The notes: generated by a model from the sequence alone, not told the origin. Numbered from the stretch's first letter, positions 1 to 47,653 are shown. The stretch: 64,000 nucleotides of DNA from Candidatus Dojkabacteria bacterium (GCA_030583845.1 CP129478.1:587686-651685), one strand, 5' to 3'. A program made the numbers and translations.

Positions 1-471
1 CAAATTGCAGCAGCTGGAGGATATGCCACCTCAGTTGGTACATATCGCAACTTTGGAGCTGCTCCTGGATGGAATGTATACAACCAGCGCGGAGATCAGG
101 CATATTCCGATGATTTCGCATTCGTGCCTAACGACGCGGTCTACATTGTGGTTCAGCAAGAGGCCACTTTGCAGTTTAGAGGCTCTACATATGTAGACCC
201 GGTCGATACATATCTAAAGCCGGGTTGGAATCTAATCGCGCTCAAGGGTAGCAACAGCCAGTACAGCATCCAGACATTGTTAGCCACGATAAATGAGCAG
301 ACAGGTGTAAATGCAAGGGTTGGAGCGATCTGGAGTCAGGGCAAGGGTAAGTACGATACATTTGTATTAGAGGTGGATGGGGATATTTATGGCGCGAATT
401 TTATTGTGCCTGATGATGTGGGTGTGTTTATATTCGTAGATTCGGGGTCGGGCTATTGGACGCCGGAGTAG
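1..471 (+). CDS. 3' fragment of a surface-protein paralog; the gene starts upstream of the window. Carries the conserved C-terminal domain shared with ORFs 23218-24399 and 24782-27853.
   Basis: Frame 1 is open from base 1 (QIAAAGGYATSVGTYRNFGAAPGWNVYNQ...). The C-terminal pattern GWNL..GSNS..YS...L....N..T...A.V...W......Y......Y..NF.V......F.F...G.G.W.P matches the tails of the two large Cys-rich proteins. Confidence 0.55.
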   Translation, partial: QIAAAGGYATSVGTYRNFGAAPGWNVYNQRGDQAYSDDFAFVPNDAVYIVVQQEATLQFRGSTYVDPVDTYLKPGWNLIALKGSNSQYSIQTLLATINEQTGVNARVGAIWSQGKGKYDTFVLEVDGDIYGANFIVPDDVGVFIFVDSGSGYWTPE

Positions 472-6738: not shown

Positions 6739-6859
6739 TATGGGAAAAATGCACGATCCATTTTCTGGGTTTCTGGGAACAACTAAACAACCCGGATTTT
6801 AAAGTACACGAATTCGTGTACTTTAAAGATAGTGATAGTTATGAGGAGTAAAAAGTGTT

Positions 6860-8693: not shown

Positions 8694-8706
8694 CAAGAGA
8701 TACAAC

Positions 8707-13560: not shown

Positions 13561-13721
13561 CCCGCCAACCTATAATGCGTGGCATTTCACGGCTCATCAA
13601 GTAAAATTAATGAGCAAGTATAATGCGGGATTTATTAAACGATGAGCCTTTGTGAGCTACACTCTGGTTGCTCGGTTAATGAAAAGTGCGTGATCTACGC
13701 GTTATAGGTTAGCGGGGGCGG
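13561..13721 (+). promoter_or_regulatory. Long imperfect inverted repeat (family B palindromic element) forming a structured rpsO-pnp intergenic leader.
   Basis: The left arm CCCGCCAACCTATAATGCGT (13561-13580) pairs with the right arm ACGCGTTATAGGTTAGCGGGGGCGG (13697-13721). An inner hairpin GGCTCATC (13591-13598) pairs with GATGAGCC (13641-13648). TATAATGCG occurs twice, at 13571-13579 and 13619-13627. Confidence 0.5.
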
Positions 13722-21781: not shown

Positions 21782-23071
21782 ATGCGCAATCGCAAACTTT
21801 TCAAGGTTGTTGTGGTCTCGGCACTCGTGTTATTTGGCGGGTTTGTGGCTTTTCTCGGCTACACCTACTGGCAAACAAGCCCATCCAAATTATACGTCAC
21901 CAACATCACTGACCGTTCCGCTTCCATCTCGTGGGTCAGCAATGAGGCTACAACTGGTGTAGTGATAGTAAAGGAGGGCAACTACATGCTCCCTCTTAAG
22001 CTCACGACTAATGGTAGTACCCGCGCCGGCTTCGATGATAGAGATCGTGCCCGTGCAGAGCTTGAAGCATCCGAGCAGACAGCTGAAAATCTTGCAGATG
22101 GCACAGCCGCCACAGCAGATGATGTCCAGACAGATGTAACGATCAAGAACTATGGCGAGTATTATGTGCACCACGCCACAATCACAAATCTAAAGCCCGA
22201 AACTGAGTACGACTTTATGGTAGGCAATGGCTGGTTCTTCCACAAGGAGAAGAGTGTCGTTGGTGGATCAGACAAATTTACTACTTTCGCACAGCTTGAT
22301 CAGCTTGCCACTCCAAACCCATCATATGGCAAGGTGGTTCTACCTGGTGAAGGTGATGATTACGAATCGAGCACTGACTCAGTGCTTTATATGAGAGTGG
22401 ATTTTGGCGGTAACAAAGTATCTCAGGTATTGTCTTCGGTAACTGCTGAGAATGGATCATGGTATATCGACCTTGGAAATGCTCGAGATGAATTCGGCAA
22501 TGAGGTCGGAGAGGTGACAGAGGATTTAAATGAGAAGGTATGGGTCGAGGGTGGTCCAAATGGTATGGTTGAAGAGTTCGATAACCCTACAAGTCTGGAT
22601 GCGCCGATGCAGATACTGTTCTTAGAAACTGATGAGGTTGAGGCACGAGCGCCTTTTGATTTCTTAGCAGGTGAAGTAAATGCTGAGTGCTGTGAGGCGT
22701 TTACCTGTGTTGATGCCGACGGGACTACTGTAGCTTCGTATGGTGGTGACGATGACTTTGGAGGAGGTAGTTGTGAGACAAGAAAGACAGGCATCTGTCC
22801 GAGTGGTAGTTCGCCTGTAGGTGGAGCGAAGTGTGGTGATACATCATCGACACCTGGAGCTCCTTCGCAGCCTGGTGGTAGTCCAACTGCTCCAGCAGGG
22901 GCATGTTCGAGCCCTCAGTCAGGAAATTGCCACAACAAATACAACACATCGATCCAGATAGGGTCTAATCCGTATAATGCCTGCACTTGCACATTTTTAG
23001 ACAGCTCTAATCCGGCACTGTGCGGTTGCCATTATATTCCCTCCACAGACACCATCTCCTTCCAATCCTGA
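21782..23071 (+). CDS. Surface protein paralog 1, N-terminal part. It has an N-terminal TM anchor, an FN3/purple-acid-phosphatase-N-like domain, and the start of a Cys-rich region. It is probably the 5' portion of one frameshifted gene running to 24399.
   Basis: Hydrophobic KLFKVVVVSALVLFGGFVAFLGY. Domain signature SASISWVS...YYVHHATITNLKPETEYDFMVG. The Cys/Pro-rich tail continues without stops in another frame (23001-23459). Confidence 0.6.
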   Translation: MRNRKLFKVVVVSALVLFGGFVAFLGYTYWQTSPSKLYVTNITDRSASISWVSNEATTGVVIVKEGNYMLPLKLTTNGSTRAGFDDRDRARAELEASEQTAENLADGTAATADDVQTDVTIKNYGEYYVHHATITNLKPETEYDFMVGNGWFFHKEKSVVGGSDKFTTFAQLDQLATPNPSYGKVVLPGEGDDYESSTDSVLYMRVDFGGNKVSQVLSSVTAENGSWYIDLGNARDEFGNEVGEVTEDLNEKVWVEGGPNGMVEEFDNPTSLDAPMQILFLETDEVEARAPFDFLAGEVNAECCEAFTCVDADGTTVASYGGDDDFGGGSCETRKTGICPSGSSPVGGAKCGDTSSTPGAPSQPGGSPTAPAGACSSPQSGNCHNKYNTSIQIGSNPYNACTCTFLDSSNPALCGCHYIPSTDTISFQS

Positions 23072-23217
23072 GCCATCTGAAGTCGTCGCTCAACCCGGTG
23101 TTAACTGTGGCTCGCCTAGCAGTTCTAATCCATGTCCAATAACTGGACCTGAAACAGTCGTACAGGAGCCTCCGGTAGTCACACCGCCACCACCGACAAA
23201 TGATGATCCGATAACTA

Positions 23218-24399
23218 TTGAAGATGCTACAGCAATACCCGTTTCACCTGTTACCGGTGGTGATGAACCGGGCAGGTACGATGGGGTTCAGTGGACTGGT
23301 AGTAATGCGAGGGCAGAATGTGAAAGCTTATGTGATGGTAACTGTGTCGATCACTATAAGCCAGAGACTGAGGTTGGACGGTATTCAACTCCACAGTTCG
23401 CCTCAACTGCATGTGGGAATAATAGCAATTGTTATCCTGGTACTTGCGCCGTTGAGTGAGGCTTCTACTGGTGAATATGCAGCAATCTGTAACTTGTATC
23501 AATACACCGAGTGTGAAGTTTCCGATGAAATGTTTCAGGCTCCATCAGTGGTGAAGAGTGCGTACGCCCAAACCAACCCCGAATCCCAAGAGTTCCTCTT
23601 CGATCCATCAGCAGGCGTCTACTATGTGGGTGAAGCAGGTGTTTACCAGATCGAATATGAGGGTCAAACATATGAAGCAATTGTCGGAGAAGGTGATCAG
23701 AATGTAATACTGTATATCGACGAAAATGCAAATGGTACATACGATGAGGGTACGGACATTCAGATCTCAGTTAACCCATCGGAGCTAAATGTCGCCCAGA
23801 CCGCTGAGGCACACACATATGATTTGCAAGCTGGATTCAACTTTATCCACCTGCCATTTATCCCTGAAGATTACCCGATGGCATCTGACCTGTTGGAGTA
23901 TGTCAACAACGAGTATGGCGGAATTGCTTTCTCGATTGCCAAATTTGACGACACCTGGAAAGTAGTCGGTGCAAATGGTGGCGAGTTCAATGTAAATGAT
24001 TTCCAGCTCGTGCCAGGTGCTGGCTACCTGCTCAAAATAACTCAGGATACTGAGGTTACATTTACGGGGCGGGAGATCCTTTATGAAACTGAAGGCGATA
24101 CTGCGCCAGTATTCTTCGCACCAGGATGGAACTTGGTCGGTATCTACGGTAGTAATGCAGCTGTTTACTCGGCTGAATCCATGATTGACAGCCTAAACGA
24201 GTATGAAACGACAGATTTTACAGCGGTCAACGTCACACGATGGCCACCAGAGAAGGCACGGTATGAAGGATTGCAAAAGGAGATGGGTGAAGATGGAGAG
24301 TACGATGTATATGGCTTCGACTTCCCATTAAATCAGTATACTTCATACTTTGTGAGAATCACTGAAGGTACTGGTAATTGGGAGCCGGCGATGGAGTAG
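23218..24399 (+). CDS. Surface protein paralog 1, C-terminal part with the conserved ~200-aa C-terminal domain. It is probably the 3' portion of the same frameshifted gene.
   Basis: The C-terminus aligns with the C-terminus of 24782-27853: GFNFIHLPFIPEDYPMASDLLEYVNNEY...SIAKFDDTWKVVG...LVPGAGYLLK...PGWNLVGIYGS...YSAESMIDSLNE...TAVNVTRWPPEKARYEGLQKE...YGFDFPLNQYTSYFVRITEGTGNWEP. The real coding start is probably upstream by read-through from frame 3. Confidence 0.6.
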   Translation: MKMLQQYPFHLLPVVMNRAGTMGFSGLVVMRGQNVKAYVMVTVSITISQRLRLDGIQLHSSPQLHVGIIAIVILVLAPLSEASTGEYAAICNLYQYTECEVSDEMFQAPSVVKSAYAQTNPESQEFLFDPSAGVYYVGEAGVYQIEYEGQTYEAIVGEGDQNVILYIDENANGTYDEGTDIQISVNPSELNVAQTAEAHTYDLQAGFNFIHLPFIPEDYPMASDLLEYVNNEYGGIAFSIAKFDDTWKVVGANGGEFNVNDFQLVPGAGYLLKITQDTEVTFTGREILYETEGDTAPVFFAPGWNLVGIYGSNAAVYSAESMIDSLNEYETTDFTAVNVTRWPPEKARYEGLQKEMGEDGEYDVYGFDFPLNQYTSYFVRITEGTGNWEPAME

Positions 24400-24400
24400 G

Positions 24401-24561
24401 GCGCTAACCTATAATGCGTAGAATTGTACGGCTTATTAACCACCCGACCCACTTGCTTCGCAAGTGGTCGGGTGGTCGGGTGGCTAACCTTTATGGACTG
24501 TGATACTCTGATACTATCTACAGATTACAAATAAACTATTAACGCACTATGAGTTAGCGGC
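24401..24561. repeat. Composite nested palindromic element between the two surface paralogs, with family B half-sites flanking a family A hairpin.
   Basis: GCGCTAACCTATAATGCGTAG at 24401-24421. A CCACCCGACCCACTTGC-ttc-GCAAGTGGTCGGGTGG hairpin at 24440-24475. AACGCACTATGAGTTAGCGGC at 24541-24561 is the near reverse complement of the first half-site. Confidence 0.6.
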
Positions 24562-24810
24562 ATGAATAAGAAGAAGTTATACGTAATAATTGGGATTATC
24601 GCACTTTCGCTGGGCATCGCGGCGGTCAGCTTCTGGTTTGTAAATAGCAAAGCTCCCGATGTTGTGAATGTGACCAATGTGACATCGTCATCCGCGACAA
24701 TCTCGTGGGTAAGCGATGAAGCCGAACCCGGCAAGGTAATCGTCAAACGGGGTAATTACCCATTTCCATTCCAGCCGCGTAATGCAGAGCACGCAGGTAT
24801 ATTTCGATGA
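24562..24810 (+). CDS. Surface protein paralog 2, N-terminal fragment (TM anchor plus start of the FN3/PAP-N-like domain). It is truncated by a frameshift and continues in 24782-27853.
   Basis: MNKKKLYVIIGIIALSLGIAAVSFWF then SSATISWVSDEAEPGKVIVKRGNY. The stop is created at GGT ATA TTT CGA TGA. Paralog 1 reads RAGFDDRD at the same point, and here FDDRD continues in the +1 frame. Confidence 0.6.
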   Translation: MNKKKLYVIIGIIALSLGIAAVSFWFVNSKAPDVVNVTNVTSSSATISWVSDEAEPGKVIVKRGNYPFPFQPRNAEHAGIFR

Positions 24811-27800
24811 TAGAGATGTAGCCGAGTGGGAGGTGAATAATGCAAGCAGTGAAAGCGCATCTGTTGAATTACCAGACCTGACCGACGACGAGATCGGACT
24901 ATACTATACCCATCATGTCACTGTAGTCGGTCTTGAGCCCGATACAAAGTATGACTTTATGGTTGGCACTGGCAATTTCTTTTACAGAGCAACCGACCAT
25001 GATGGTGCAAATGAATTTACCACAGCCGCAATAGCCGACGAGATTGATACACCGGACCCTGCCTACGGCAAGATAGTGGCAACCGGTGAGACCATGTCTG
25101 ACCTGATCCCAGTCGTCGATGCAAATGTTTACTTCTATGTTGAGAATTCGTTTGGAGATGTTCTCACCAATAGGATCTCAGCAACATTAAATGATGAGGG
25201 CTCATGGTATCTCGACCTCAATACACTGTATGACAGTGAGGGAGAGGTATTCTTCTCAACTATCCCGGAAGAGGAGACAGAGCTCTACAAAGAGGTTGTT
25301 GAAGTTCATGTCCCAAGTGGTGATATCTACATGAAGCGAATCTCGCCTTCAGAGGACACTCCGGCTGAAGATATGCTGCTAATTGAAGATTATAAGGTTG
25401 AGAAAGCAATTGAAGGTGAACCCCCATTAAGTGGACTAGCATCATCCGCATATGCATGGGATCTTACCTGTCCAAATGGTAAAAAATTGCATGCTGATGC
25501 AGCTGATGAAGCCAGCTTTATAGCCGTATATGGCGCATCTCAAGCCCAATCGAAGTGGGAGCAGGAGGCAAGCGGCTACTGTGGCGACCCGAACACCCCG
25601 AGCTGGCAAGAGGGCCAGCCTACTGTACAGCTTACCGACGAAGTCTGCGCTGTAACCTATACTGAGACAGGCGCATTTGGCTCTAACGATGGCTGTGAGT
25701 ATAACTGTGTAGGTATGGGGCATAGAACCATAGGTGGTGATTGTAAGAATGAATGGGGTAATGGCTCCTACTGCCAGAAGAAAGATCCAAACTGTGGAAC
25801 TGTGTGCGTAGGTGGTGAAGTATGTAAGCAGGGAGATTTCTGTATTTCTGGTGATTATCAGTGCTGCACTGCAGGATGTAATGTGAGAGGCTCCGAGGGT
25901 GGTAGCTCAGGCTCTGGAAATGGGTCTGGTACTCCTACCAATCCATCTGTGTGCCCTAACAAGAAGCCTGACAATGCAACTGAGAGGTGTGGTGAAGATA
26001 ATGTCTGTAATACTGGTGAGTGGTGTGGAGACTTGAATGGTGTTAGCTGTAAGTGCGGTGAAGGGACTGTCGAGTGTGGGATGGTGTGTACACAGTCGAT
26101 CTCCGAAGGCAAGGTAGCTGTAAAAGTATGTTGCCTGTATCATGGTGTGCCATCGCTATTGACGAACTATACAGGGGAATGTCCAATAGGCTGGCAAGAG
26201 GGAACTCAGAACCAATGCAAGACAACGGCGGGTACGTTGCCAACAGAGCCTGTGTGTTGTAAACCTCCAAGTGGCGAGGATATATGGATGTATACTCCAT
26301 CGGGACAGTGTGAAGCGCCACTGGTTTCATCAACTTGTCCAGCCAAGCCTAAGCCTGTACCTCTGCCAATCAATCAATCAACTCCTGCTCCAGTCGTGAC
26401 AAGCGGCAGTGAGTATACAAACACATGCACTGTCGAGCCTAATCAGAGATGTGGTGATTGTAAAGGGCAGGTAGGTGAGGCAAATGGCATAACTTATATG
26501 TGTACAGATATTGGAGCCGGTAGCTTCTTATATTGGTGGAAAGCTGTTGTGCCTGCTGGTGAGAGATGTCCTGATGGAAATGAGTGTATATGTGTAACTA
26601 GAGGCGGTGATGGTTCGATCGAACATTACTCTGGTGACCACAATTGCAATTCTTTAGCGCAGCCTGCTGGATCGCTTACTCCGATAGGTAACAACCAGCA
26701 GTGTCCCGCGGACAGCAACGGATGCTTCTGTGATACTCAAAATGGATACATATATCCTGGCTCATGGTGTGGATATGCCGTCTCATGTGACGCCAATAAC
26801 GTCGGAAGCGTGTGTAATAACGATGGCACAACATGTGAATTCACTGAAGGACAAACGGCTACATATACTACGTTAGGTGGAGATACCAAGACTATGCCGT
26901 GGGATGAATGTCAAAATACCCCTGAGTGTATCAACGGCTATCCACAAGTTCGTTCAGGTGAATATACATGCACTGGTCCGACAGCTTCATCTTTGGACAA
27001 CGGGTCTGACCTCATCTCAGAAGCTAGCACAGCTGTGCTTGGTGCGGGAACGGGTAGGTCGGTCAAAGTGTCTCCTCAAAACAACGCTGTAGCTATAGAT
27101 GATAGTGGAATATATTGTACCGCTGTCGATGCTCAGGAGTACTGCTTCGAATTAACCGATGCAGCAGAAAATATCCTTTACGCTGATCTAAACGGTAATA
27201 ATACCTACGAAGAAGGTACTGATTTACTGGTCTCTCAGGATGGTAGAGAGCTTGAGCTCCAACAGCAAAATACCACCTTCGACTACCAGATGGTGAAAGG
27301 ATTCAATTTCGTCTCGTTCCCATTTGTTAACGCAAGCTATATGGCTACAGCTTCTGATCTACTGACCTATCTGAATTCCGAATATAGCAATGGTTTCTAC
27401 TCCATCGCGAAATTTGAAGCCGGTCGTTGGAGAATTGTTGGGAATAGAGAAGGCGACAACTATGGCTCAGAGGACTTCCCATTGGTTCCAGGAGAGGGAT
27501 ACCTGTTTAAAGCCAATCTTGACATCTTAATTTCATTAAGTGGTCAGCGAATTACAGAGCCAGTCCCAGTGTATATAGCAACAGGCTGGAACCTAATCGG
27601 TGTTAATAGCGGTAGCGATGAATCCAAATACACAGCTGAAAGCCTAATTGACGACGTTAACTCAACCGAGGGACTCACCGCAGTGAACCTATCGCGCTGG
27701 TCAACCAGCAAAGCCCGCTACGAAGGCCTACAGAAAGAAGATGTTGATGGCACTGCACAGGTTTATGGTTTCGACTTCCCGGTCGACAACCGTAGCTCAT

Positions 27801-27853
27801 ACTTCTTGAGAATCGTTGAAGGTGAGGGACTTTGGACACCCGACGCACAATAG
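24782..27853 (+). CDS. Surface protein paralog 2, main part. It has the rest of the FN3/PAP-N-like domain, a ~550-aa Cys-rich region (more than 60 Cys) and the conserved C-terminal domain.
   Basis: YYTHHVTVVGLEPDTKYDFMVGTGNFFY completes the domain. Cys-rich repeats read CxxGxxC...CC. The C-terminus is GFNFVSFPFVNASYMATASDLLTYLNSEY...GWNLIGVNSGS...KARYEGLQKE...YGFDFPVDNRSSYFLRIVEGEGLWTP. Confidence 0.65.
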   Translation: MQSTQVYFDDRDVAEWEVNNASSESASVELPDLTDDEIGLYYTHHVTVVGLEPDTKYDFMVGTGNFFYRATDHDGANEFTTAAIADEIDTPDPAYGKIVATGETMSDLIPVVDANVYFYVENSFGDVLTNRISATLNDEGSWYLDLNTLYDSEGEVFFSTIPEEETELYKEVVEVHVPSGDIYMKRISPSEDTPAEDMLLIEDYKVEKAIEGEPPLSGLASSAYAWDLTCPNGKKLHADAADEASFIAVYGASQAQSKWEQEASGYCGDPNTPSWQEGQPTVQLTDEVCAVTYTETGAFGSNDGCEYNCVGMGHRTIGGDCKNEWGNGSYCQKKDPNCGTVCVGGEVCKQGDFCISGDYQCCTAGCNVRGSEGGSSGSGNGSGTPTNPSVCPNKKPDNATERCGEDNVCNTGEWCGDLNGVSCKCGEGTVECGMVCTQSISEGKVAVKVCCLYHGVPSLLTNYTGECPIGWQEGTQNQCKTTAGTLPTEPVCCKPPSGEDIWMYTPSGQCEAPLVSSTCPAKPKPVPLPINQSTPAPVVTSGSEYTNTCTVEPNQRCGDCKGQVGEANGITYMCTDIGAGSFLYWWKAVVPAGERCPDGNECICVTRGGDGSIEHYSGDHNCNSLAQPAGSLTPIGNNQQCPADSNGCFCDTQNGYIYPGSWCGYAVSCDANNVGSVCNNDGTTCEFTEGQTATYTTLGGDTKTMPWDECQNTPECINGYPQVRSGEYTCTGPTASSLDNGSDLISEASTAVLGAGTGRSVKVSPQNNAVAIDDSGIYCTAVDAQEYCFELTDAAENILYADLNGNNTYEEGTDLLVSQDGRELELQQQNTTFDYQMVKGFNFVSFPFVNASYMATASDLLTYLNSEYSNGFYSIAKFEAGRWRIVGNREGDNYGSEDFPLVPGEGYLFKANLDILISLSGQRITEPVPVYIATGWNLIGVNSGSDESKYTAESLIDDVNSTEGLTAVNLSRWSTSKARYEGLQKEDVDGTAQVYGFDFPVDNRSSYFLRIVEGEGLWTPDAQ

Positions 27854-27896: not shown

Positions 27897-28232
27897 ATGT
27901 TAAATCAGATTCCCGCAGAATTTTGGATGGTTATTATCTCAGTCCTGACACTGTTCCTGGTATTTATCATGTACCAAATTGCCAACCTGTTGAAGGAAAG
28001 CACCAAGACTATGGCCGAGACAACCAAAGTTGTTACAGAGCTCCAGGATACAGTGAAGAAAGCCAATCTAGTGCTAGAGGATGCAGCAGAAGTTGTCTCA
28101 ATGACAAAAACCACTGTCGAAGAGGTACAGGATAACGTGGTGACTCCAGTCATTAAGATAGCTTCGATCATCGGTATGGTCTCAGATATTGTAGATAGCT
28201 TCACTGGCGGGTTCAAGGGCACCAAGGAGTAG
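27897..28232 (+). CDS. Small membrane-anchored protein, DUF948-like.
   Basis: N-terminal TM WMVIISVLTLFLVFIMYQIANLL followed by a charged coiled-coil-like region. Confidence 0.5.
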   Translation: MLNQIPAEFWMVIISVLTLFLVFIMYQIANLLKESTKTMAETTKVVTELQDTVKKANLVLEDAAEVVSMTKTTVEEVQDNVVTPVIKIASIIGMVSDIVDSFTGGFKGTKE

Positions 28233-28303: not shown

Positions 28304-30214
28304 ATGTACATCACACCTAGGCAGAAAAAAAGGTATATATTCAGATTCACACTTGTCGCTTTAGCCATTCCGCTAGTGGTTTTGGCCATCTATGCTGGTG
28401 TCCAATGGTTTTCAAGCGCTGACACCGAAGCAACTCCCGAGGATGTAGTTATCAGCAACCTCACTACCAGCGCTGTCACATTGAGCTGGACCACGACGGT
28501 GGATGCTAGCTCCAGCGTGAAGATGGTCGAAAGCGGAGATGTCTTCACCGATCCGCGAGGTGCAAGCTCAAGAAGGACCCATTTTGTTGAAGTCACTGGG
28601 CTCGAGCCAGAGACAGAGTATGAGTTCAAAATCACTTCAAATGGCCAGGATTATACCGCAGAGGGTGGAGCTGCATTTAGATTTACCACTGCCCCAGTGA
28701 GCGATGAGGCCTCAGTGCCCTTCCCAGCATATGGGACAATAGAGGGTGCGAATGGAGATGATGCACTTATTTTCTTCGTGGTTGCTGGTGCCACTCAATC
28801 TCTGCCGGTCTCAGCAGTGCCGCAATCAACAGGGAACTGGATCTTGGATCTATCTTCAGTCCGATCACTGGATGGTACTTCATTAATACAGGTCAGCAGC
28901 GATAGCTCTGTTGAGCTTCTGGCAATCGGGCATGACGGGATGGGCTCGAGAGTCACAGGAAAATTTAGCGATCTTTTCGACGAAGAGGGGATGCTTATTG
29001 CGGAATTTTCTCTTCAGTCCGATACCGATGTGATGGCCTACCTACCTGGCGCGTCAAAGATTACGACGATTATTGCTGAGCAGCCACCAGGAGAGGAACC
29101 ACCACCGTCTGAAGAACCACCACCATCTGAAGAGCCGCCTCCATCTGAAGAACCACCACCATCTGAAGAGCCACCTCCTGCTGAGGAGCCGCCACCATCT
29201 AACGACTTTGACCCTGCATCAAGACAGTTCCTGATTCGCGCCGATATCGTGTGGGTTGATATGGTTGAGATAACAGGCGATGGTGCTGCTCCAGTAGTTG
29301 TGACCGGTGAGCAGTCGGTACAGCTTGTTGCACGAAATGACACCAGCTTCTCTGTCGTATGGCTTACAGAAGATGAGGTCCCGGGCTATGTAAGCTATGG
29401 AGAGGATGAAGATGATCTGATCGAAGAGGCGATCGACATTCGCGACACCTTGGTATCGCGCGGAGATTACAGATCACACCTAGTCGAGATATCTGGTCTT
29501 ACCCCTGAGACCATATACTACTTTGAGATACATTCGGGCGACGAGACATACTCGTTGAACGGAGAGCCATATCAACTAGAAACATTTGACACAGTGGTCA
29601 CTCCACCACCATTTAGTACAGCCCAAGGCACAGTATCTGGCTTAGAGAGTTATGACGATGTTGTGGTGCTTGTGCAGCTAAATGATGTTGATGGCGCAGG
29701 TACTGCAGGTGCATCACAGCTTGGAGCTGTAGTCCCTGATGAGAATGGTGCTTGGATCGCAAGCATCGGCGACCTACGAAGCGAAAGTGGCACTGAGTAC
29801 TATGTGTTAGGCGATACAGATGAGGTTACAGCTGAATTGGTTGTATACGCTAATTCTGAGCCAGTCACGATTACAGGTGATGAGATTGAGGATAGTGAGC
29901 TAGCCTTGACTGCCGATCCGCCTACAGAGGGTGGGAGCAGCTACCAGCGAATAGCCTTGCTAAATGATTATGGGGTCTCATCGACCTATGCGGAGTCTCC
30001 AACAAGTGGCGTAGGGGGTGGTGGCCCTGCCGATGTCGATACTGGGAGCGAGATTACTACACCGAAGACCGGTATTGAAGATAACTTGGTAGTGGCTTCA
30101 GCGGTTGGTGGAGGTTTGCTTACGGTTGGGGCGGCTACTTTGTTGGTCGCTTACAGTGGTCGTGGCAAGAAGAAGGGCGTAAACAAGGGCTCTTTGACTA
30201 GTCGGGTCTCATAG
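28304..30214 (+). CDS. Cell-surface protein with an N-terminal TM anchor, two FN3-like domains, (EEPPPS)6 repeats and a C-terminal LPXTG-like sorting signal.
   Basis: FN3 signatures VTLSWTT...THFVEVTGLEPETEYEFKI and SFSVVWLTEDEV...YRSHLVEISGLTPETIYYFEI. The C-terminus reads TPKTG, then a 21-residue hydrophobic stretch, then RGKKKG. Confidence 0.7.
   Translation: MYITPRQKKRYIFRFTLVALAIPLVVLAIYAGVQWFSSADTEATPEDVVISNLTTSAVTLSWTTTVDASSSVKMVESGDVFTDPRGASSRRTHFVEVTGLEPETEYEFKITSNGQDYTAEGGAAFRFTTAPVSDEASVPFPAYGTIEGANGDDALIFFVVAGATQSLPVSAVPQSTGNWILDLSSVRSLDGTSLIQVSSDSSVELLAIGHDGMGSRVTGKFSDLFDEEGMLIAEFSLQSDTDVMAYLPGASKITTIIAEQPPGEEPPPSEEPPPSEEPPPSEEPPPSEEPPPAEEPPPSNDFDPASRQFLIRADIVWVDMVEITGDGAAPVVVTGEQSVQLVARNDTSFSVVWLTEDEVPGYVSYGEDEDDLIEEAIDIRDTLVSRGDYRSHLVEISGLTPETIYYFEIHSGDETYSLNGEPYQLETFDTVVTPPPFSTAQGTVSGLESYDDVVVLVQLNDVDGAGTAGASQLGAVVPDENGAWIASIGDLRSESGTEYYVLGDTDEVTAELVVYANSEPVTITGDEIEDSELALTADPPTEGGSSYQRIALLNDYGVSSTYAESPTSGVGGGGPADVDTGSEITTPKTGIEDNLVVASAVGGGLLTVGAATLLVAYSGRGKKKGVNKGSLTSRVS
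29093..29200 (+). repeat. 18-bp tandem repeat x6 encoding (EEPPPS)6.
   Basis: gaggaaccaccaccgtct and five near-identical in-frame units follow one another. Confidence 0.85.
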
Positions 30215-30282
30215 AGGTTATAACTGATGACTCCTGCAGCTCAATCAAGGCTAATTCTTAATCGTTCCCACACCTATAGCCT

Positions 30283-30311
30283 TGTAAACTTTTTGCCTAA
30301 TCAGTACAATT
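30283..30311 (+). promoter_or_regulatory. Candidate promoter (TTGTAA, 17-nt spacer, TACAAT) for gene 30338.
   Basis: -35 box at 30283-30288 and -10 box at 30306-30311, 26 nt upstream of the ATG. Confidence 0.35.
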
Positions 30312-30337
30312 TGGCAATTTAGCTTCTGTAATATTGA

Positions 30338-31864
30338 ATGTTGAAACTCGATAAAAGCAATTCACTATTTTTTCTGTTGGGCATCTTTGCACTGCTTTTT
30401 CTCGGCTATGTAGCCCTTTTCTATGAAAGCGATGCTTTTTATAGCGATGCGAAAGCCCCGGCAGAAGCATCCACAAGTAGCGAAGAGGCTGGTGGGTCAC
30501 AGGAAGTAGTGTTGGTGGGAAATACGGTCGGAGAAAATGTGGAAGTCCCAGAGATCACCGAAGAGCAGTATCGTCTTGTAAAAGAGCTAGTAATTGCAGC
30601 CGAGCCTTCACTCGCGAGCATGAGCAATCTGGATGAGGTTATTCGGGAGCCATATCTGGCTCAAAATATTGCTAGCCTGATGGAGCAGGTGGAAGAAAAT
30701 GATCTGACAGTGACACAGGTTCGAGCATCAGTACGTGGTGCTGGTACTGGGGATTTTAGCCCGACCGGTGAAGATTGCGCGGCAGGCGCGAAGGTGATTT
30801 TGATGGATCCGGCCTGTTATATTACCGAAGAAAACACCTCAATTAACGAGAATCTAGGTAACTATGTAGGCTCAGGGTGTGACAATAACCCTGCAACCCC
30901 GTGCCAGGTGCGGGCCAGCTCAGTTATTGAGCCGTGGGAGATCAATGGCCCAGATCAGAACCAGGGCTACTCTGCTGGAACTGATGTACGAGGAAAGACC
31001 GAGAGTGAACGGATCCTGATTCAGAACAAGCAGATGAAAGATGGAGTCCTAGCCTATCACTCAGAGAGCGGTAGCTATTATGGCGATGCCTCGGATGCGG
31101 AGAAGTATGAGCAGTTCAAGCAGGTAAATATGGGCGTGGCAAATTTGCTACGTCCACAGCTAGCAAGGGAGGTTTCAGAAGACTCAGCTGATGCCAAGAG
31201 AGACTTTGCAGTAGAGATCTGCGCAGGTGGTGAAGAGGTGTGTGATCAGAACGAGAAGACATTGGCCAGATTCAAAGGTACCAACTCAGATGGTGATTAT
31301 CTTAGCCCTGCAAACAGCAATAAATTTGCCGAGGCCAGATATTTTGGGAAGGCGCTCCAGCCACCTACTGGTGAGGTCGAGACTGAGCTACGAAATGAAT
31401 GCGTTGATAACAGCTCTCCACAATATCGCAATATTAGTAAGACAGATCAGCTATGTCTTGGGTCACGCAGGGTTTCTGATGTGTATCATGGCGTAAAGCA
31501 GCTTGGCAATGAGATACTTTGCAGACTAAGGCCGAATGACAGCGATTGTCAGCTACAGGTTGTTACAGGCATCCAGGTCGGTTCGATGTTTGGCGATACT
31601 GAGTATTTTGTTGAAGGAATATCTAGCAACTATATGGCAGAAGCAATGGTTTCAGTGTATTCTTCCCCTGTTGATGACAGGAATGTGACTATGCTTAGAA
31701 CTCCGTGTACAATACGTATAGATTATTCTAAGATTGTTGACGTATACTGTTATATCAAGAATCAGAATGAGTATGCAGAGTTCTCAAGGCAGGCTGCAGA
31801 GATGACGCCCGGAGATTCATTCAAGTATGAAGCATATGGAAGCGCGCTTGAGGAGGAGTTTTAA
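30338..31864 (+). CDS. Secreted or membrane-anchored Cys-containing hypothetical protein.
   Basis: N-terminal hydrophobic anchor FFLLGIFALLFLGYVALF. About 14 Cys are scattered in the mature part. No recognisable catalytic motif was seen. Confidence 0.55.
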   Translation: MLKLDKSNSLFFLLGIFALLFLGYVALFYESDAFYSDAKAPAEASTSSEEAGGSQEVVLVGNTVGENVEVPEITEEQYRLVKELVIAAEPSLASMSNLDEVIREPYLAQNIASLMEQVEENDLTVTQVRASVRGAGTGDFSPTGEDCAAGAKVILMDPACYITEENTSINENLGNYVGSGCDNNPATPCQVRASSVIEPWEINGPDQNQGYSAGTDVRGKTESERILIQNKQMKDGVLAYHSESGSYYGDASDAEKYEQFKQVNMGVANLLRPQLAREVSEDSADAKRDFAVEICAGGEEVCDQNEKTLARFKGTNSDGDYLSPANSNKFAEARYFGKALQPPTGEVETELRNECVDNSSPQYRNISKTDQLCLGSRRVSDVYHGVKQLGNEILCRLRPNDSDCQLQVVTGIQVGSMFGDTEYFVEGISSNYMAEAMVSVYSSPVDDRNVTMLRTPCTIRIDYSKIVDVYCYIKNQNEYAEFSRQAAEMTPGDSFKYEAYGSALEEEF

Positions 31865-31882
31865 TATTAAGTAACGCCCAAA

Positions 31883-33361
31883 ATGGTAGATCGAATATAT
31901 AAGATATACAAATTCGCAGGAAAGATAGCTAGGTCGAGGGCTTTGAACAGTGCGCTGGTGCTTGTGGCGACATTCGGTCTAGGCTTGGAGGTCGTATCGC
32001 CAATTGTCTATGCACAAGACGGCGAAGGTAATGCAACCGTTGACGCAGGAGAGTCTTATACTTCTGGGACTGCTGTGATTGATACTCTGACAGAGTCAGA
32101 GGGTGTGACAGACAGTGCGAATCTGGCACAAAATCAGGCAACAGACTTCGCGATTGTTGCACTTTCGATTACATGTATGGAGTGTCTCGAGAATGCAGAT
32201 GATGTGGCTGCCAACCCAAATATCCATCCTTCTGCAAAGACAAGTCTACTGACCCTCGTTGATAATAACAATAGACAGATGCTTACAAATCCGCCTACAC
32301 AGAACCTTTACGCACATATGCAGACCCAGTGGATGCCAGGCGAGACATATGCAAATAGAAGCGTCTATGCTCAGTCTGGGTATGACTTACTCATATCGAC
32401 CGGCATTGATCAGCTCTGGGAAAATGTGAGAAATGTTGCCTACGTTATCTTCGTGCTAGTGCTTATAGTTGCCGGGTTTATGATGATGTTTAGGCAGAAA
32501 ATAGGTGGTCAACTGGCTGTGACGGTATTCAACACAATTCCTCAGGTCATAATATGCCTGATATTGGTAACATTCAGTTTCGCCATAGTCGGTTTAGTCT
32601 TAAATCTTAGCGCCACGCTTACAAATGTAGCTGCTGGTATTCTTGGCCTAGCTGATCCGACAGATGGTGTAACGGCCACGGGGCCGCTTTCAGTGTTTAG
32701 CGCATTTATTTCTGGGAATATTGTTACTGTTGGTGCGGCAAGTGTAACGACAATAGTAACTACAGTAGCAGGATCGATCTTGGCAAATAGTGGAATTGCA
32801 GCACTGGGTATAGCTGCCTCTCCATTGGCAGGTGGTACACTAGCTATTATAGGTCTTGTTGGCATCTTGATAGTGTTAGTTATCCTCGGAATCGTTCTGG
32901 TTGGATCAGTGAAGGTATGGATTACCCTTCTAAAGGCATATGTTGGTATACTTATCGATACAATATTGGCTCCACTCTATTTAACAATGTCCGCCTTGCC
33001 TGGCAGATCTCAGATGCGCGGAGATTGGTTTAGACGAATCCTCAAAAATGCATTAACTTTTACTGTTGTGTTTTTCTTCCTTAATCTTGCGGCTTTTGTA
33101 TTTAATGCAAACATTAATCTTGGATTTCCTACCTCTCTGGCAGAAGGTCAGACAGCTCCAGTTGGCTCTGGCCCCGTTTTGCTTGCGTGGCTGCTGAAAG
33201 GTGCAGTCTCGATCTATCTAGTATATGTAGCGGCTGAGGCACCTAAATTCCTTGAAGAGTTCTTGCCGCAGACTGGTGGGAAGAGTGTTGCAGGGGCACT
33301 GCAGTCAGCTGCTAAGGGTGCATTTGGCAAGCTTCCAATTGTCGGTGGCATGATGGGCTAA
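31883..33361 (+). CDS. Polytopic membrane protein with a VirB6/TrbL-like topology: a signal peptide, a ~170-aa extracytoplasmic domain, then 5-7 TM helices.
   Basis: Signal-like SALVLVATFGLGLEVVSPIVYAQ. Dense TM bundle from VAYVIFVLVLIVAGFMMMF onward, with Gly/Ala-rich helices. Confidence 0.6.
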   Translation: MVDRIYKIYKFAGKIARSRALNSALVLVATFGLGLEVVSPIVYAQDGEGNATVDAGESYTSGTAVIDTLTESEGVTDSANLAQNQATDFAIVALSITCMECLENADDVAANPNIHPSAKTSLLTLVDNNNRQMLTNPPTQNLYAHMQTQWMPGETYANRSVYAQSGYDLLISTGIDQLWENVRNVAYVIFVLVLIVAGFMMMFRQKIGGQLAVTVFNTIPQVIICLILVTFSFAIVGLVLNLSATLTNVAAGILGLADPTDGVTATGPLSVFSAFISGNIVTVGAASVTTIVTTVAGSILANSGIAALGIAASPLAGGTLAIIGLVGILIVLVILGIVLVGSVKVWITLLKAYVGILIDTILAPLYLTMSALPGRSQMRGDWFRRILKNALTFTVVFFFLNLAAFVFNANINLGFPTSLAEGQTAPVGSGPVLLAWLLKGAVSIYLVYVAAEAPKFLEEFLPQTGGKSVAGALQSAAKGAFGKLPIVGGMMG

Positions 33362-33437
33362 TGAGCTGTTTTTCGACCAATTCCCAAGCTGAGAGAATCA
33401 GGCCACTGTTCTGAAATAATTATGTGAGCATAACTTA

Positions 33438-36400
33438 ATGGCGCAAAGAAAAGACCTATACTCCAATTCGTTCTCCTCGGTGTCGAGCTTTATTTTGGGT
33501 AATAACAAGCCTAAGAAGCCTGTAAAACGCAAGCCGCCTAAGTATGATGGGATTGATTATAATGATGGTCTCGCAGGCGCGCTTGCAACCATGGCAGGTG
33601 CGCCTGGTGTGTTTCTGGGTGAATCAGCCATAAACTCGCTTAACTCCACCCTTGGAGACCCTTCTCTGATAGAGCTTTATATTGATAAAAGCGAGAAGCA
33701 AAAGATGCAGGGTCTGGATAAGAATGCTGGACGTATTAGGGTCCGTGGATCTGACCTTAACAAGTTTATACAGTCTCCAAGCTCATTTCTCGACAAGGCA
33801 CTTCAAGGTGCACGTGCTGAACGGAAGTGGGCACTTACGGTAGCGCTTCTTGGTGGTGGTGCAGAGGTAGCAAATACCTATATGTGGGCAAAGAAAAACA
33901 ACCTCAGCAATAGTGATGCAGCTCGGCTTGCAAGCTCGGTATGGGATCTGGATAAGAGTATTTACACCGATCAAGAAAGTCTTGGAATAATGACAGAAAC
34001 GGCGCTCCTTAAGAGTGGAGGCCGGTCGATCAAAGAGGCTGAGGAATTAAACGCCAAACTTGTGGCGAGCGTGGCAAAGCAGAAAGAGGGTAGGCAGACT
34101 GTATCACGTTTATGGACTGGAGCGGCATCCGATGTTTCTGATCACATAATGTCTGGTGCACTGTTTAAATCTCAAGATGAGTACTCAAAATTTCTCTTGG
34201 AGAAGGGTCTTAAAGATAAGGAACGAGACTTAGTCTTGAAGCTTAGAGCAGGTACACTTACGGAACCGGAGGAAGTTAGTTACGCCAATCGGCTTGAGAA
34301 TGATCTCAAGTCTGCCGCTGCAGCAGGATGGCCTAAAATTACGTCGCAGAAGACAAAGCTAGATGCTCTTGTTAGTCAGAGCATACCAGATCCGGCAGCT
34401 CGTGAGCGATTCTATCAAGAGTTTGCGAAAGAGTATACCTCAAGGTATGGAAAAGTTGATTATACGGCAACAGGCAACTTAACGAATTTCGGTGTCCGCG
34501 AGATGTTGAAGGATAATTATTGGGCGAAGGCACAGCTTTCGACTGGAGCTGATAAGGAGAAGTATCTGAGAACAATAGCAGCTGTAGATGTATTGCAGAG
34601 GACGAAATCGCCGGGTGATTATTCAAAGCCTGATTACGATAAAGCAAGAGAGGCTGTTACATCACTCAAAGGACAGCCAGGTGTATCTCAGTCGGATATA
34701 GATGGCCTCTTGGGACAGATAAATAAAGCGGAGTCAATGTACGCAAAACGGTATGTTAAGCATCGTGCGCATAATGAGGTTGAAACTAAGTGGCTAAAGC
34801 CACTTAATAATCCGATGATGTCCTATGAAAATGCTCCTGAGGCCAAGCTTTTGCTTGAGGCCAAGCTGAAAACAAGCAGATATAGTCTTATATCACGAGG
34901 TTTAGCAGTGGATGACCCACGGGTACAAGAGATCGATTATGCGTTGGAGACGTTAAAAAGTGGGTTCAACCCGTTTGGTGGTGGTCGTCCACGTATGGCA
35001 AATATGATAATGATGTACCGCTCAAGGGGTAGCATGGCAAATTTTGTACCTGGGCTGTTTACTGGTGCTTCCTATGCCGATGGTGTGATGTCACCAGGGG
35101 ATTGGGGAGGGATCACTATGAAATATAGGATGAAAGATCGTTGGGGGGTTGATAAGAACGGTAACCCGAAGTTACAGGTCGGAGAAGCTAAAGGATTTAT
35201 CCTGCAAGGCCGCTCGCACCTTCCAACTGCATATCAAGGGCTAGTGAACTACTACTATCTGACTCCAGGCAGTTTGATCAAGAGTACATTGTGGAATGGT
35301 GAGGGTCTTTACTACCTTGCAGAGCAACGAAGGCGCCGAGGGATTACCAAGATGCTTTCTGAGCTCGATCCCGATAAAATCCAGAATCCAACAGGCTCCC
35401 TGGCGAAGTACTTCGAAGCGTTGAAGGATGATGCGGGCAATGTAACGGGGCATAGGTTTATGTGGGAAAAGGTGGATGGGGATTTTCTTGGGATTCTGGA
35501 AGCGCTAAAAGATTCTGGCTACGCTGAACTATACAGGAAGTATGACAAAGTATTTAGAGGATATGAGTCTACTGTCGCGTGGGCGCATAGATTCGCAATG
35601 CCTGAAAGATTTTTCGGAAATAAGGGGGTAATCGGAGCGCAAAGACTTAAACTTCAAGGTAAAGTTGTACAATTCTTTGGTGCATTGTCAAAAAATAAAG
35701 AATGGAATGCTGCACTTAAGCTGTTCGGAGCAGGTGAGATCGGGCTCTATCAGCTGGTCGAGGCTGGTGTGAAGATTGTATTTGGCACAGTACTTAAGGC
35801 TCTCGGCCCAGTCGGTACCGTACTCTCATTTGTCATCACGGATGTAATTGTCTCAGCCCTTGTCAAAATAAGCAAACCAATCCTCGATATGAGCGTATTT
35901 GCCCTAATGGCAACGGTCGCTCTCTTCTTCCTACTTCTCTGTACAGTAATCTCAAGCCCATTCACTCTTGCCAACCGCCTCAAGACACATGCAGTCCAGC
36001 CGCCAGTCGAGGGAGTCGAGCTCGAGCCATTGCCAGGTGAATTCCCGGATGATCCAGATGCAGTAGTTATTGACCCAACCAAAGATGCGATCTGTCCAAT
36101 AAATGCAGGTGCAATCTGTACGCAGGGACCACGCGGCTCCTACTCACACGCCAGGATGGGTACATATGCAATCGATGTGAGCACAGGTGCAGGTCCATTC
36201 AGAGCGCCAACCGATGGTGTAGTTGTGAGTGTGAGATCGTCAAACTCTTGCCCATGGGGACCAAACCGTGGAGCAAATTATGGTGGATCTGTTGTTTTCC
36301 GATCGTCGGATAATATCTACTATGAAGTGATGCACGCAAATCCAACAGTAGGCACTGGTCCTGTTGAGCAGGGCACAGTGTTAGCGACAATGGCTTACGG

Positions 36401-36554
36401 ATTGCCACGAAGCGGGTGCTGGACTGGGGCACACTACCATATCGATACCTGCTTCGGCAGCCAGTCTGCTTGTGTAGCTCGAAGCCGAAGTGCCAGATGG
36501 CTTAACTCTAAAGATTGGTATAACGAGTTGAAATGTAATATCCGCGGATGTTAG
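33438..36554 (+). CDS. Large (1038 aa) protein with a ~760-aa N-terminal domain, an internal TM hairpin and a C-terminal M23 (LytM-type) peptidase domain.
   Basis: M23 motifs HARMGTYAIDV...GAGPFRAPTDGVVV (HxxxD and active-site region) and GAHYHID (HxH). TM segments at aa ~770-840 (IVFGTVLKALGPVGTVLSFVITDVIVSALV and VFALMATVALFFLLLCTVI). Confidence 0.7.
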   Translation: MAQRKDLYSNSFSSVSSFILGNNKPKKPVKRKPPKYDGIDYNDGLAGALATMAGAPGVFLGESAINSLNSTLGDPSLIELYIDKSEKQKMQGLDKNAGRIRVRGSDLNKFIQSPSSFLDKALQGARAERKWALTVALLGGGAEVANTYMWAKKNNLSNSDAARLASSVWDLDKSIYTDQESLGIMTETALLKSGGRSIKEAEELNAKLVASVAKQKEGRQTVSRLWTGAASDVSDHIMSGALFKSQDEYSKFLLEKGLKDKERDLVLKLRAGTLTEPEEVSYANRLENDLKSAAAAGWPKITSQKTKLDALVSQSIPDPAARERFYQEFAKEYTSRYGKVDYTATGNLTNFGVREMLKDNYWAKAQLSTGADKEKYLRTIAAVDVLQRTKSPGDYSKPDYDKAREAVTSLKGQPGVSQSDIDGLLGQINKAESMYAKRYVKHRAHNEVETKWLKPLNNPMMSYENAPEAKLLLEAKLKTSRYSLISRGLAVDDPRVQEIDYALETLKSGFNPFGGGRPRMANMIMMYRSRGSMANFVPGLFTGASYADGVMSPGDWGGITMKYRMKDRWGVDKNGNPKLQVGEAKGFILQGRSHLPTAYQGLVNYYYLTPGSLIKSTLWNGEGLYYLAEQRRRRGITKMLSELDPDKIQNPTGSLAKYFEALKDDAGNVTGHRFMWEKVDGDFLGILEALKDSGYAELYRKYDKVFRGYESTVAWAHRFAMPERFFGNKGVIGAQRLKLQGKVVQFFGALSKNKEWNAALKLFGAGEIGLYQLVEAGVKIVFGTVLKALGPVGTVLSFVITDVIVSALVKISKPILDMSVFALMATVALFFLLLCTVISSPFTLANRLKTHAVQPPVEGVELEPLPGEFPDDPDAVVIDPTKDAICPINAGAICTQGPRGSYSHARMGTYAIDVSTGAGPFRAPTDGVVVSVRSSNSCPWGPNRGANYGGSVVFRSSDNIYYEVMHANPTVGTGPVEQGTVLATMAYGLPRSGCWTGAHYHIDTCFGSQSACVARSRSARWLNSKDWYNELKCNIRGC

Positions 36555-36567
36555 TTAGGAATCAAAT

Positions 36568-37659
36568 ATGGACAAGCTGCTCAACATAATAAAAAAGAAT
36601 AAAGTCGTGGTGCTTGGAGCTCTAGGGCTGTTGCTGGTAATTGCTATTGCACTAATTGTTATGCAGCTAATTGGTGGTGAAGAGACAGAAATCCCGAAAG
36701 GGAGTGTTGACCAGCCTTTTACATATGAGACGGGCAAGCAGTTGGAGATACCGGAAACAGTTGAGTACACAAATTTCGACCCAGGTGATGATACGACTGC
36801 GCCAATTTACGAATTTGCACTTGAGAATAAAGTCGATCTTGTGAAATCGTTCCTGGGTAGCATCGGTAAACGCTCGATGGAGCTCGAGGAGTATGAGGAT
36901 GTTGTGTATTACTGGAGAGATGACCCGAGCGATGATTTCTATGTGGTTGAGTACAACGCGTTGACCGACCGTGTATTCTTTAGATTTGAGAGCGCTGTAG
37001 ATCCAGACCTGAATGCTGGTGGATATCTGAGCAGAGAGGATCTCGAACAGTATTTTACTGCTTTTGTTCATGAGTATTGGGATCAGTCGTACAGCTACAC
37101 TGATTTCAATGTGACTAGGGATGGATCGACTTATCGAATTGAGGCGAGCAGGCTGATTGGGAAGTATCCTTTGCACATCTCTGGCTTTGAAGAGTATTCG
37201 GATTATCTGGTTGTTGAAGATGATGGAGATATACTCGAGGGGCAGATCTATCTGATGAATTACGATCTCTCTACAGCACAGAATGTTGATCTTATTACGA
37301 CAGTTGGTCTCGGATCAGTGATCGGGCGAGATGATTATCCGAAGGATTTCTATCAATTGGAGCCTCAAGATCTTGATGGTACCTTATTATATGGTGAGCC
37401 ATACACACCTGCACAATCAGCAGGTGATCCTCCTCCAACGCCTGATGGTGAGATCCCAGAATTGACCGAGTGCACAGCTGAAGAGATATCGTTGGTGTAC
37501 CTCTACATGAGCGGTACATATCAGATGCTTACCCCAGCGTATAAGATCAGGTGTGCTGGAAATGTCGTCGTAGAAGGTAGGAGCTATAGAACAGAGGCGC
37601 TTGTTTTTGCCAATGCGATCGATCCGGAGCTTGTGTATGTGCCGGCAACGACGGAGTAG
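36568..37659 (+). CDS. Membrane-anchored extracytoplasmic hypothetical protein.
   Basis: N-terminal TM VVVLGALGLLLVIAIALIVMQLI. Acidic, aromatic-rich body with C-terminal Cys residues. Confidence 0.55.
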   Translation: MDKLLNIIKKNKVVVLGALGLLLVIAIALIVMQLIGGEETEIPKGSVDQPFTYETGKQLEIPETVEYTNFDPGDDTTAPIYEFALENKVDLVKSFLGSIGKRSMELEEYEDVVYYWRDDPSDDFYVVEYNALTDRVFFRFESAVDPDLNAGGYLSREDLEQYFTAFVHEYWDQSYSYTDFNVTRDGSTYRIEASRLIGKYPLHISGFEEYSDYLVVEDDGDILEGQIYLMNYDLSTAQNVDLITTVGLGSVIGRDDYPKDFYQLEPQDLDGTLLYGEPYTPAQSAGDPPPTPDGEIPELTECTAEEISLVYLYMSGTYQMLTPAYKIRCAGNVVVEGRSYRTEALVFANAIDPELVYVPATTE

Positions 37660-41078: not shown

Positions 41079-41144
41079 CCCGACCACCCGACTACTTGCG
41101 AAGCAAGTGGGTCGGGCAAGTGGTCGGGTGGTCGGGCTAGTTTA
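41075..41144. repeat. Family A palindromic element with an internal duplication, shared by the convergent pcrA and rpfB-like genes (bidirectional terminator candidate).
   Basis: The left arm CTAGCCCGACCACCCGACTACTTGC pairs with GCAAGTGGTCGGGTGGTCGGGCTAG (1 mismatch). An extra GCAAGTGGGTCGGG copy sits in the loop. Both stop codons lie inside the element. Confidence 0.6.
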
Positions 41145-46228: not shown

Positions 46229-46285
46229 CCGCCCCGCTAACTTACAGTGAAGTTCTCACTATAAGTTAGCGGGGCGGTTTCATTT
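46229..46285 (+). terminator. Family B palindromic element acting as a probable intrinsic terminator after fusA.
   Basis: 22-bp stem CCGCCCCGCTAACTTACAGTGA / TCACTATAAGTTAGCGGGGCGG (1 mismatch), loop agttc, then TTTCATTT. Confidence 0.7.
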
Positions 46286-47645: not shown

Positions 47646-47653
47646 TCAGTAAA

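Follow-up and report, generated by a model that had tools for sequence, protein, structure and literature searches.

Two adjacent genes of one protein family lie at 21782-27853, both on the plus strand, in the 64,000-nucleotide stretch of a Candidatus Dojkabacteria bacterium genome analysed here (GCA_030583845.1, CP129478.1:587686-651685; hereafter the window, with positions counted from its first letter). Paralogue 1 occupies 21782-24399 and paralogue 2 occupies 24562-27853, and neither is a single open reading frame (ORF): under translation table 11 the interval contains four ORFs, at 21782-23071 (429 amino acids (aa)), 23218-24399 (393 aa), 24562-24810 (82 aa) and 24782-27853 (1023 aa). GenBank shows four unrelated-looking coding sequences (CDS) in place of two disrupted genes, an annotation problem that we flag here.

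The coding path of paralogue 1 runs in frame 2 to about 23040, in frame 0 to a TGA at 23457-23459 and in frame 1 to the TAG at 24397-24399. Its first segment (21782..23071, 429 codons and a TGA) is annotated as 'fibronectin type III domain-containing protein' (WKZ30740.1). The second segment (23043..23459, about 138 codons up to the TGA) is a Cys/Pro-rich part of the Cys-rich middle and has no GenBank CDS: three-frame translation reveals an unannotated open frame-0 stretch at about 23040-23459, between the two ORFs, and codon usage scores best there in frame 0. The third segment (23455..24399, stop TAG) encodes the end of the Cys-rich region and the C-terminal module; the GenBank CDS in this part of the gene is placed at 23224-24399 (WKZ30741.1, 'hypothetical protein QY318_02735', 391 aa). 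The first frame change (frame 2 to 0) falls within 23001..23071, where both frames are open and codon usage switches from about 22950 to 23040; the second (frame 0 to 1) falls within 23215..23459, probably at about 23400-23459, as judged from translation, codon usage and stop positions.

Paralogue 2 starts in frame 1, which it leaves at about 24800, and continues in frame 2 to its end at 27853. Its first segment (24562..24810, 82 codons and a TGA; WKZ30742.1, hypothetical QY318_02740) encodes the first strands of a fibronectin type III (FN3) domain, including the motif SSATISWVS, and its second segment is the 1023-aa ORF at 24782..27853 (open from 24740, stop TAG; WKZ30743.1, FN3 domain-containing). 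Translation, head alignment, codon usage and stop positions confine the change from frame 1 to 2 to 24740..24810. All three frame changes, two in paralogue 1 and one in paralogue 2, are +1, and a codon-usage log-likelihood scan that was trained on 14 intact window genes and is independent of the translations gives the same frame paths (2 to 0 to 1, and 1 to 2).

After repair of the frames, the proteins are about 873 and 1097 aa long, for which the word 'giant' used in the first-pass annotation is generous. They have 22 and 50 Cys residues, both even numbers, which are confined to the middle of the proteins save for one pair just N-terminal of the tail repeats in paralogue 2. The common architecture proposed there, with a transmembrane (TM) helix, a PAP-N/FN3 head, a Cys-rich middle that is longer in the second copy and a conserved tail, was borne out, but the two gene intervals are not single ORFs and their frames are broken.

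The two loci are paralogous at both ends. The N-terminal 300 or so aa of the joined frames are 34% identical over 307 aa (E=8e-39) and, as had been claimed, the C-terminal modules are similar, with 43% identity over 265 aa (E=4e-60, pairwise alignment); the middles of the two proteins do not align at all. A third family member, which is more divergent, is represented by its 3' end at 1..471 on the plus strand: these last 156 codons and their TAG encode the last part of repeat 1 and the whole of repeat 2 of the C-terminal module, to which they align with 32% identity over 136 aa (E=5e-19). The similarity extends beyond low-complexity sequence, with 32 invariant columns in the three-way tail alignment, many of them W, Y, F or G.

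Domain architecture

The TM helices of the two paralogues are found at about 21791-21877 (Kyte-Doolittle scan) and about 24574-24642 (hydrophobicity scan), and the head motifs cited in the first-pass annotation are present in both proteins, in paralogue 2 in separate frames. The FN3/PAP-N-like nature of the head is confirmed by a match of paralogue 1 to Pfam Pur_ac_phosph_N (PF16656, E=3.5e-9; 37.6 bits, where the cut-off is 30), the domain lying at about 21887-22282; the head fragment of paralogue 2, which continues to about 25021 according to Pfam and alignment, reaches only 25.9 bits and stays under the threshold because the frameshift splits the domain. The same Pur_ac_phosph_N/FN3 match was obtained for 31 of 31 homologues scanned. 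In an AlphaFold (AF2) model of the head (predicted local distance difference test score (pLDDT) 78), a helix at residues 4-32 is followed by a beta-sandwich at 36-167, into which a further helix is inserted at 86-105, and by a second all-beta domain at 180-280. The second domain corresponds to about 22319-22621 in paralogue 1 (AF2 head model) and to about 25058-25378 in paralogue 2 (sequence and alignment). The head shares with Pur_ac_phosph_N/FN3 domains the motif YYxHH...L.P.T.Y.F.VG, of which YYxHH is conserved in the family heads, and the predicted beta-sandwich; it differs in its inserted helix of about 20 residues (DDRD..AEL...), in its position directly after the TM helix and in that no phosphatase catalytic domain follows. 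The head belongs to a known domain family and is an ordinary example of it.

The Cys-rich middle starts at 22688 in paralogue 1, where the last Cys codon is at 23512-23514, and spans 25469-26971 in paralogue 2 with 48 Cys (both from translation). Across the family this region is 280-560 residues long, non-repetitive and hypervariable, with Cys counts that are mostly even, and no Pfam match, EGF pattern or internal repeat was found in it. The EGF-like Cys spacing that had been suggested could not be substantiated: there is no EGF match in Pfam at E<=0.1, neither PROSITE pattern (PS00022, PS01186) occurs, and only one of the 31 homologues has a weak EGF match.

The tail is the best conserved part of the protein: column identity across the family is about 60% in the tail, compared with about 44% in the head and 11-30%, with heavy gaps, in the middle. 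The module occupies 23602-24396 in paralogue 1 and 27056-27850 in paralogue 2 and has at its start a short beta segment and the loop D-x-N-x-N-G-x-Y-D-E, which varies hardly at all and which we take to resemble a Ca-binding loop of the DxDxDG type. The predicted domain of about 200 aa is indeed conserved but is itself a tandem duplication of a unit of about 95 aa, preceded by a conserved segment of about 60 aa. The twin alpha/beta repeats (23788-24396 and 27239-27850, from alignment) are mutually homologous (hhalign probability 95.9%, E=5e-9) and share the motifs G[FW]N[FL], a helix, a W and then PG.GY or YGFDFP..SYF. An AF2 model of 27059-27850 has a pLDDT of about 90 at residues 71-264 and consists of two alpha/beta repeats. 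The protein ends in this globular domain, with no C-terminal LPXTG or TM segment.

The novelty claimed for the C-terminal domain withstood all comparisons made. The tail has no match in Pfam and NCBIfam, SLH, CWB and choline-binding repeats included, and none in a sequence profile search of the PDB, and its model retrieves nothing at E<=1e-3 with Foldseek from PDB and BFVD. With the known terminal modules (WxL, SLH, CWB/choline-binding and the T9SS CTD) it has in common a strict C-terminal position and high relative conservation; profiles of SLH, CWB/choline-binding, LysM, WxL, LPXTG and T9SS CTD all fail to match it. The tail represents a domain family not described before, for which the libraries searched contain no structural relative.

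The protein family and its syntenic loci

With a HMMER profile, 1528 cluster representatives were retrieved at E<=1e-3, of which 302 reach E<=1e-30; the majority are 850-1450 aa long and have the domain at the very end. A word-indexed search gave only 10 matches, at first suggesting a rare domain. The window copies are 41-55% identical to homologues, and profile matches to family members are 1e-100 or better. The end of the domain lies 0-4 residues from the C-terminus in 139 of 148 representatives. Among 122 long representatives, 117 have the same head, 108 an N-terminal hydrophobic helix and 110 no Cys in the last 215 residues; the median Cys count is 39.5 and the count is even in 72% (p=5e-7). 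The proteins form a multi-copy family, as the third copy and the many homologues show, but one that is not private to this genome (at least 1500 cluster representatives). The family is essentially limited to Dojkabacteria-like Patescibacteria, and it is unnamed in the literature searched, in which no paper describing it was found.

A scan of one genome per species yielded 21 loci, nearly all labelled Dojkabacteria, with some labelled by their submitters as Saccharibacteria or Nomurabacteria. An intact homologue, encoded by one ORF of 963-1231 aa and with 20-56 Cys in its middle, is present at 16 of the 21 loci. Neither window paralogue is a single unbroken ORF in the family's range of about 850-1450 codons; a TM helix, head and second beta domain are present in both, in paralogue 2 only after frame repair. 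Tandem copies are frequent (two in each of the loci L004 and L007 and three in L017). L004 is syntenic with the window, with RsmB, DUF4153, a DUF948-like protein, a double-FN3 protein and homologues of the genes at 30338 and 31883, and has both orthologues intact (1045 and 1006 aa). This synteny (DUF4153 upstream; DUF948-like, double-FN3 and polytopic membrane proteins downstream) is kept only in the closest loci, L004 and L018, and no operon partner conserved beyond these two was found.

Each window copy is nearer to its intact L004 orthologue (47-54% identity in the tail) than to its neighbour (43%), indicating that the duplication is old. The rapid divergence of the members from one another that had been proposed is, for the same reason, not borne out: only the middle is hypervariable, and that of paralogue 2 aligns just partly even with its L004 orthologue.

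More distant twin-repeat proteins were found with the family profile in Thermoflexus (L023), Desulfobulbia (L024) and the representatives P0163-P0200: they carry two tandem units of about 80-100 aa with the same motifs at the extreme C-terminus, at just 23-28% identity. All are hypothetical secreted proteins, unnamed and uncharacterised, and have Thr/Pro-rich linkers, occasionally RHS, He_PIG or PPC domains, where the family has FN3 and the Cys-rich stalk.

Some other homologues are disrupted as well. The one at L001 (6700-10870 of JAXGOY010000005.1) has at least six frame changes or stops, and the adjacent genes for MutL, UvrB, an 808-aa Ig-domain protein and an intein-containing NrdD show no disruption; nor does P0011, a related protein of 1246 aa with 88-95% identity in the head and 57-72% elsewhere. 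At L003 (1-1687), from an Illumina assembly of about 3x coverage, the homologue has one shift in the Cys-rich region. L002 has a disrupted homologue too, but its assembly is generally fragmented.

Origin of the frame changes

The likeliest site of the first change in paralogue 1 is ATT CCC TCC at 23036-23044, where removal of one C gives CGCHYIPPQTPSPSNPEPSE, also given as CHYIPPQTPSPS. The candidate site of the second change is GTT GAG TGA GGC (GAG TGA GGC at about 23454-23462) and has no base run. In paralogue 2, the likeliest site is the T-run at 24802-24804 within ATA TTT CGA TGA (24799-24810): removal of one T gives HAGIFDDRDVAEW, AGIFDDRD, and brings back the family-invariant D-x-R-D (invariant D85, R87 and D88), and the head alignment crosses the frameshift without a gap. 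No simple-sequence repeat, long homopolymer (runs are of 3 bases at most) or tandem repeat was found at the shift sites or in the two genes, nor any nucleotide repeat common to both paralogues. An alternative code with TGA as a sense codon was ruled out, as the homologous sequence switches frame and more stops soon follow in the old frame. A diversity-generating retroelement or gene conversion between the paralogues was ruled out too, with no repeat of at least 30 nucleotides (nt) involving either gene and no reverse transcriptase in the window.

Other genes of the window are intact. NusA, YlxR, IF2, HsdM/S/R, PNPase, RsmB, RsmE, DUF4153, UvrD, EF-G, EF-Tu, ribosomal proteins, Adk and Map all have full-length Pfam architectures, the unannotated genes at 28304-33361 have full-length counterparts in L004, and no indel was seen in any other sizeable window gene checked. 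With a probability of about 9e-4 that three random indels would all land in these 6.07 kb of the 64 kb, the frameshifts are local rather than general. A protein search with the 429-aa fragment matched only itself.

We give an even chance to the frameshifts being real, recent inactivating indels. Nearly as probable is an artefact of assembly or consensus, as might arise if strains polymorphic for indels were merged into one consensus; both genes would then be intact and expressed in the real organism. Artefacts would account for the downstream frames, which are fully open for 1018, about 138 and 314 codons with coding-type codon usage, and for the return of family-invariant residues and even Cys counts on removal of single bases; a run of 3 bases (CCC or TTT) is found at two of the three sites, and both sites in paralogue 1 fall in the hypervariable, indel-rich middle. 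The L001 homologue, with its many disruptions beside intact neighbours, hints in the same direction, at a locus-specific consensus problem. Yet the absence of indels from the other window genes checked speaks for a low general error rate, the runs are just 3 bases long and lacking altogether at the second site of paralogue 1, the paralogues have no common nucleotide repeats that could cause mis-mapping, and the homologue in the Illumina assembly L003 is also shifted, though at a coverage of only 3x. We therefore regard real indels and artefacts as about equally likely, because no independent assembly of the same strain was found.

It is very improbable that the shifts are functional, by programmed +1 ribosomal frameshifting or by classical phase variation that toggles the surface proteins. 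All three shifts are +1, and CCC-U and UUU-C (followed by CGA) would permit re-pairing of the P-site tRNA in the +1 frame; contingency loci, moreover, typically include surface proteins. Programmed shifting is unlikely because the homologues are not shifted: the orthologues and most family members are single unbroken ORFs, so there is no conserved shift site. Programmed +1 frameshift genes of the prfB type have such a conserved site and a slippery codon next to a stop or hungry codon, whereas here re-pairing is an option at only two of the three sites and the second site of paralogue 1 has no slippery codon. Phase-variable contingency loci have a repeat or long homopolymer at the shift site, and none of the sites has either. 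The disruptions in L001 and L003 are mixed in direction, with in-frame stops among them.

Proposed role and genomic neighbourhood

With somewhat better than even confidence, we explain the locus as a whole as a pair of tandem paralogues from an unnamed, membrane-anchored, Cys-rich family, with frames broken here and a role as stalk proteins. Their extracellular character is evident from the TM helix, the mostly even Cys counts and the FN3 domain, and in overall design they belong to a known kind, the modular surface stalk proteins. The more specific idea, that a type-II anchored extracellular stalk presents a distal binding module, is tentative and falls a little short of an even chance. The FN3 head would be seated on the membrane: family members have, by inspection, no AXA-like cleavage site after the N-terminal helix, and FN3 begins within about 5 residues. 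The disulfide-bonded, fast-evolving middle would span the wall as a variable spacer, and the conserved twin repeat would form the distal binding end, which may recognise a conserved ligand, for example a glycan or a component of the envelope, that is displayed by a partner cell or surface. Genomes of the Candidate Phyla Radiation are enriched in MdbA-like thiol-disulfide oxidoreductase, VKOR and sortase (PMC6744442).

MSCRAMM/SdrD-type adhesins are likewise modular extracellular proteins with a stalk and a terminal conserved module, and the SdrD B-like repeats have a Ca-binding loop similar to D-x-N-x-N-G-x-x-D-E, a likeness at the motif level only (one homologue matches PF17210 at E=0.06). 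In contrast to these adhesins, the family is anchored by an N-terminal TM helix rather than a C-terminal LPXTG, its stalk is disulfide-rich and non-repetitive instead of built from Ig-like repeats, and it has no homologous ligand-binding domain.

Several points weigh against a stalk with a distal binding end. The TM topology and the lack of cleavage are deduced from sequence, neither gene as assembled can yield the full protein, and exact-pattern and protein-seeded scans of JGI metagenomes found no independent same-strain assembly. The strict C-terminal position of the tail, its top conservation and the Thr/Pro-rich linkers in L023 and L024 fit anchoring or sorting to the cell's own envelope at least equally well. 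The twin-repeat module might then be a non-covalent anchor or sorting domain for the own wall or S-layer, with the FN3 head, the variable Cys-rich loop or both exposed, the main alternative to our reading, which we consider rather unlikely but which has several observations on its side. The domain sits within 4 residues of the C-terminus in nearly all representatives and is also C-terminal in the relatives from other phyla, after Thr/Pro-rich linkers; its conservation is what a conserved self ligand would produce; and the neighbouring protein encoded at 28304-30214, which has a similar N-terminal head, has a sortase-like signal where both paralogues have the twin repeat. However, the module resembles known anchoring domains neither in sequence nor in fold, the N-terminal helix, without a signal-peptidase site and abutting FN3, is already anchor-like, and the C-terminal position in Dojkabacteria orthologues may be just inherited architecture.

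A further idea, speculative and improbable, is that the twin repeat has a fold not seen before, with which it grips a conserved host ligand, and that the tandem paralogues are toggled in the population by indels without simple-sequence repeats; such toggling would explain the selective disruption of homologues in the window, L001 and L003 amid intact neighbours. An enzymatic function, as secreted phosphatases or otherwise, might be suggested by the match to Pur_ac_phosph_N, which normally precedes a metallophosphatase domain, and by the conserved YYxHH, but it is hardly credible: neither the window proteins nor 31 + 10 full-length homologues have a metallophosphatase or other catalytic Pfam domain, and the HH motif belongs to the FN3-like domain itself.

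Directly downstream of paralogue 2, 27897-28232 encodes a 111-aa membrane protein with a sub-threshold DUF948 match, whose position is kept in L004 and L018. The 636-aa protein of 28304-30214 has two PAP_N/FN3-plus-beta-domain heads like those of both paralogues, an (EEPPPS)n tandem repeat at 29084-29209, a C-terminal TPKTG followed by a hydrophobic stretch and KKKG, which is sortase-signal-like, and, unlike both paralogues, a cleavable-looking N-terminal site (SSA|D). An unannotated envelope gene block follows at 30338-37659, syntenic in L004 and L018, which encodes a 508-aa secreted protein with 12 Cys, a 363-aa TM protein and a 1038-aa protein whose C-terminus is rich in Cys and His and which has a TM segment near residues 780-840. 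The 492-aa polytopic membrane protein at 31883-33361 has a weak, sub-threshold TrbC/VirB2 match (E=1e-4) and is syntenic in L004 and L018, not in other loci; no VirB4 is present in the 64-kb window. For the patescibacterial type IV secretion system, no adhesins were detected (PMC12102498).

Elsewhere in the window, a Fic-domain gene (511-1542) directly follows the third family copy, and a type I restriction-modification system (hsdM, hsdS, hsdR) lies at 5155-11736, its hsdS and hsdR separated by a GIY-YIG/T5orf172 gene (8076-8693) that overlaps the hsdR start. Repeated intergenic elements are found at 24402-24480, 13563-13600, 41079-41116, 46232-46280 and 47651-47699: a 38-nt motif with an embedded TATAAT occurs after paralogue 1 and upstream of pnp (82% identical), the GC-rich hairpin at 24443-24480 is 97% complementary to a hairpin after uvrD, and tuf is flanked on both sides by near-identical palindromic hairpins. 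ARAGORN detected no tRNA genes in the whole window.

Should the frameshifts be real, neither copy functions at present in the population that was sequenced. That frame disruptions cluster in this family in several assemblies is due either to an assembly artefact that recurs at surface genes varying between strains or to repeated inactivation of the genes. Very little has been learned so far of the ways in which Dojkabacteria, like most Patescibacteria outside Saccharibacteria, make contact with other cells. The family is widespread in the lineage, often in tandem and clearly extracellular, and carries a very well conserved domain for which solved structures and curated families offer no relative; this twin-repeat domain of about 200 aa, free of Cys and confidently modelled, is a concrete, expressible target for structure and binding studies.

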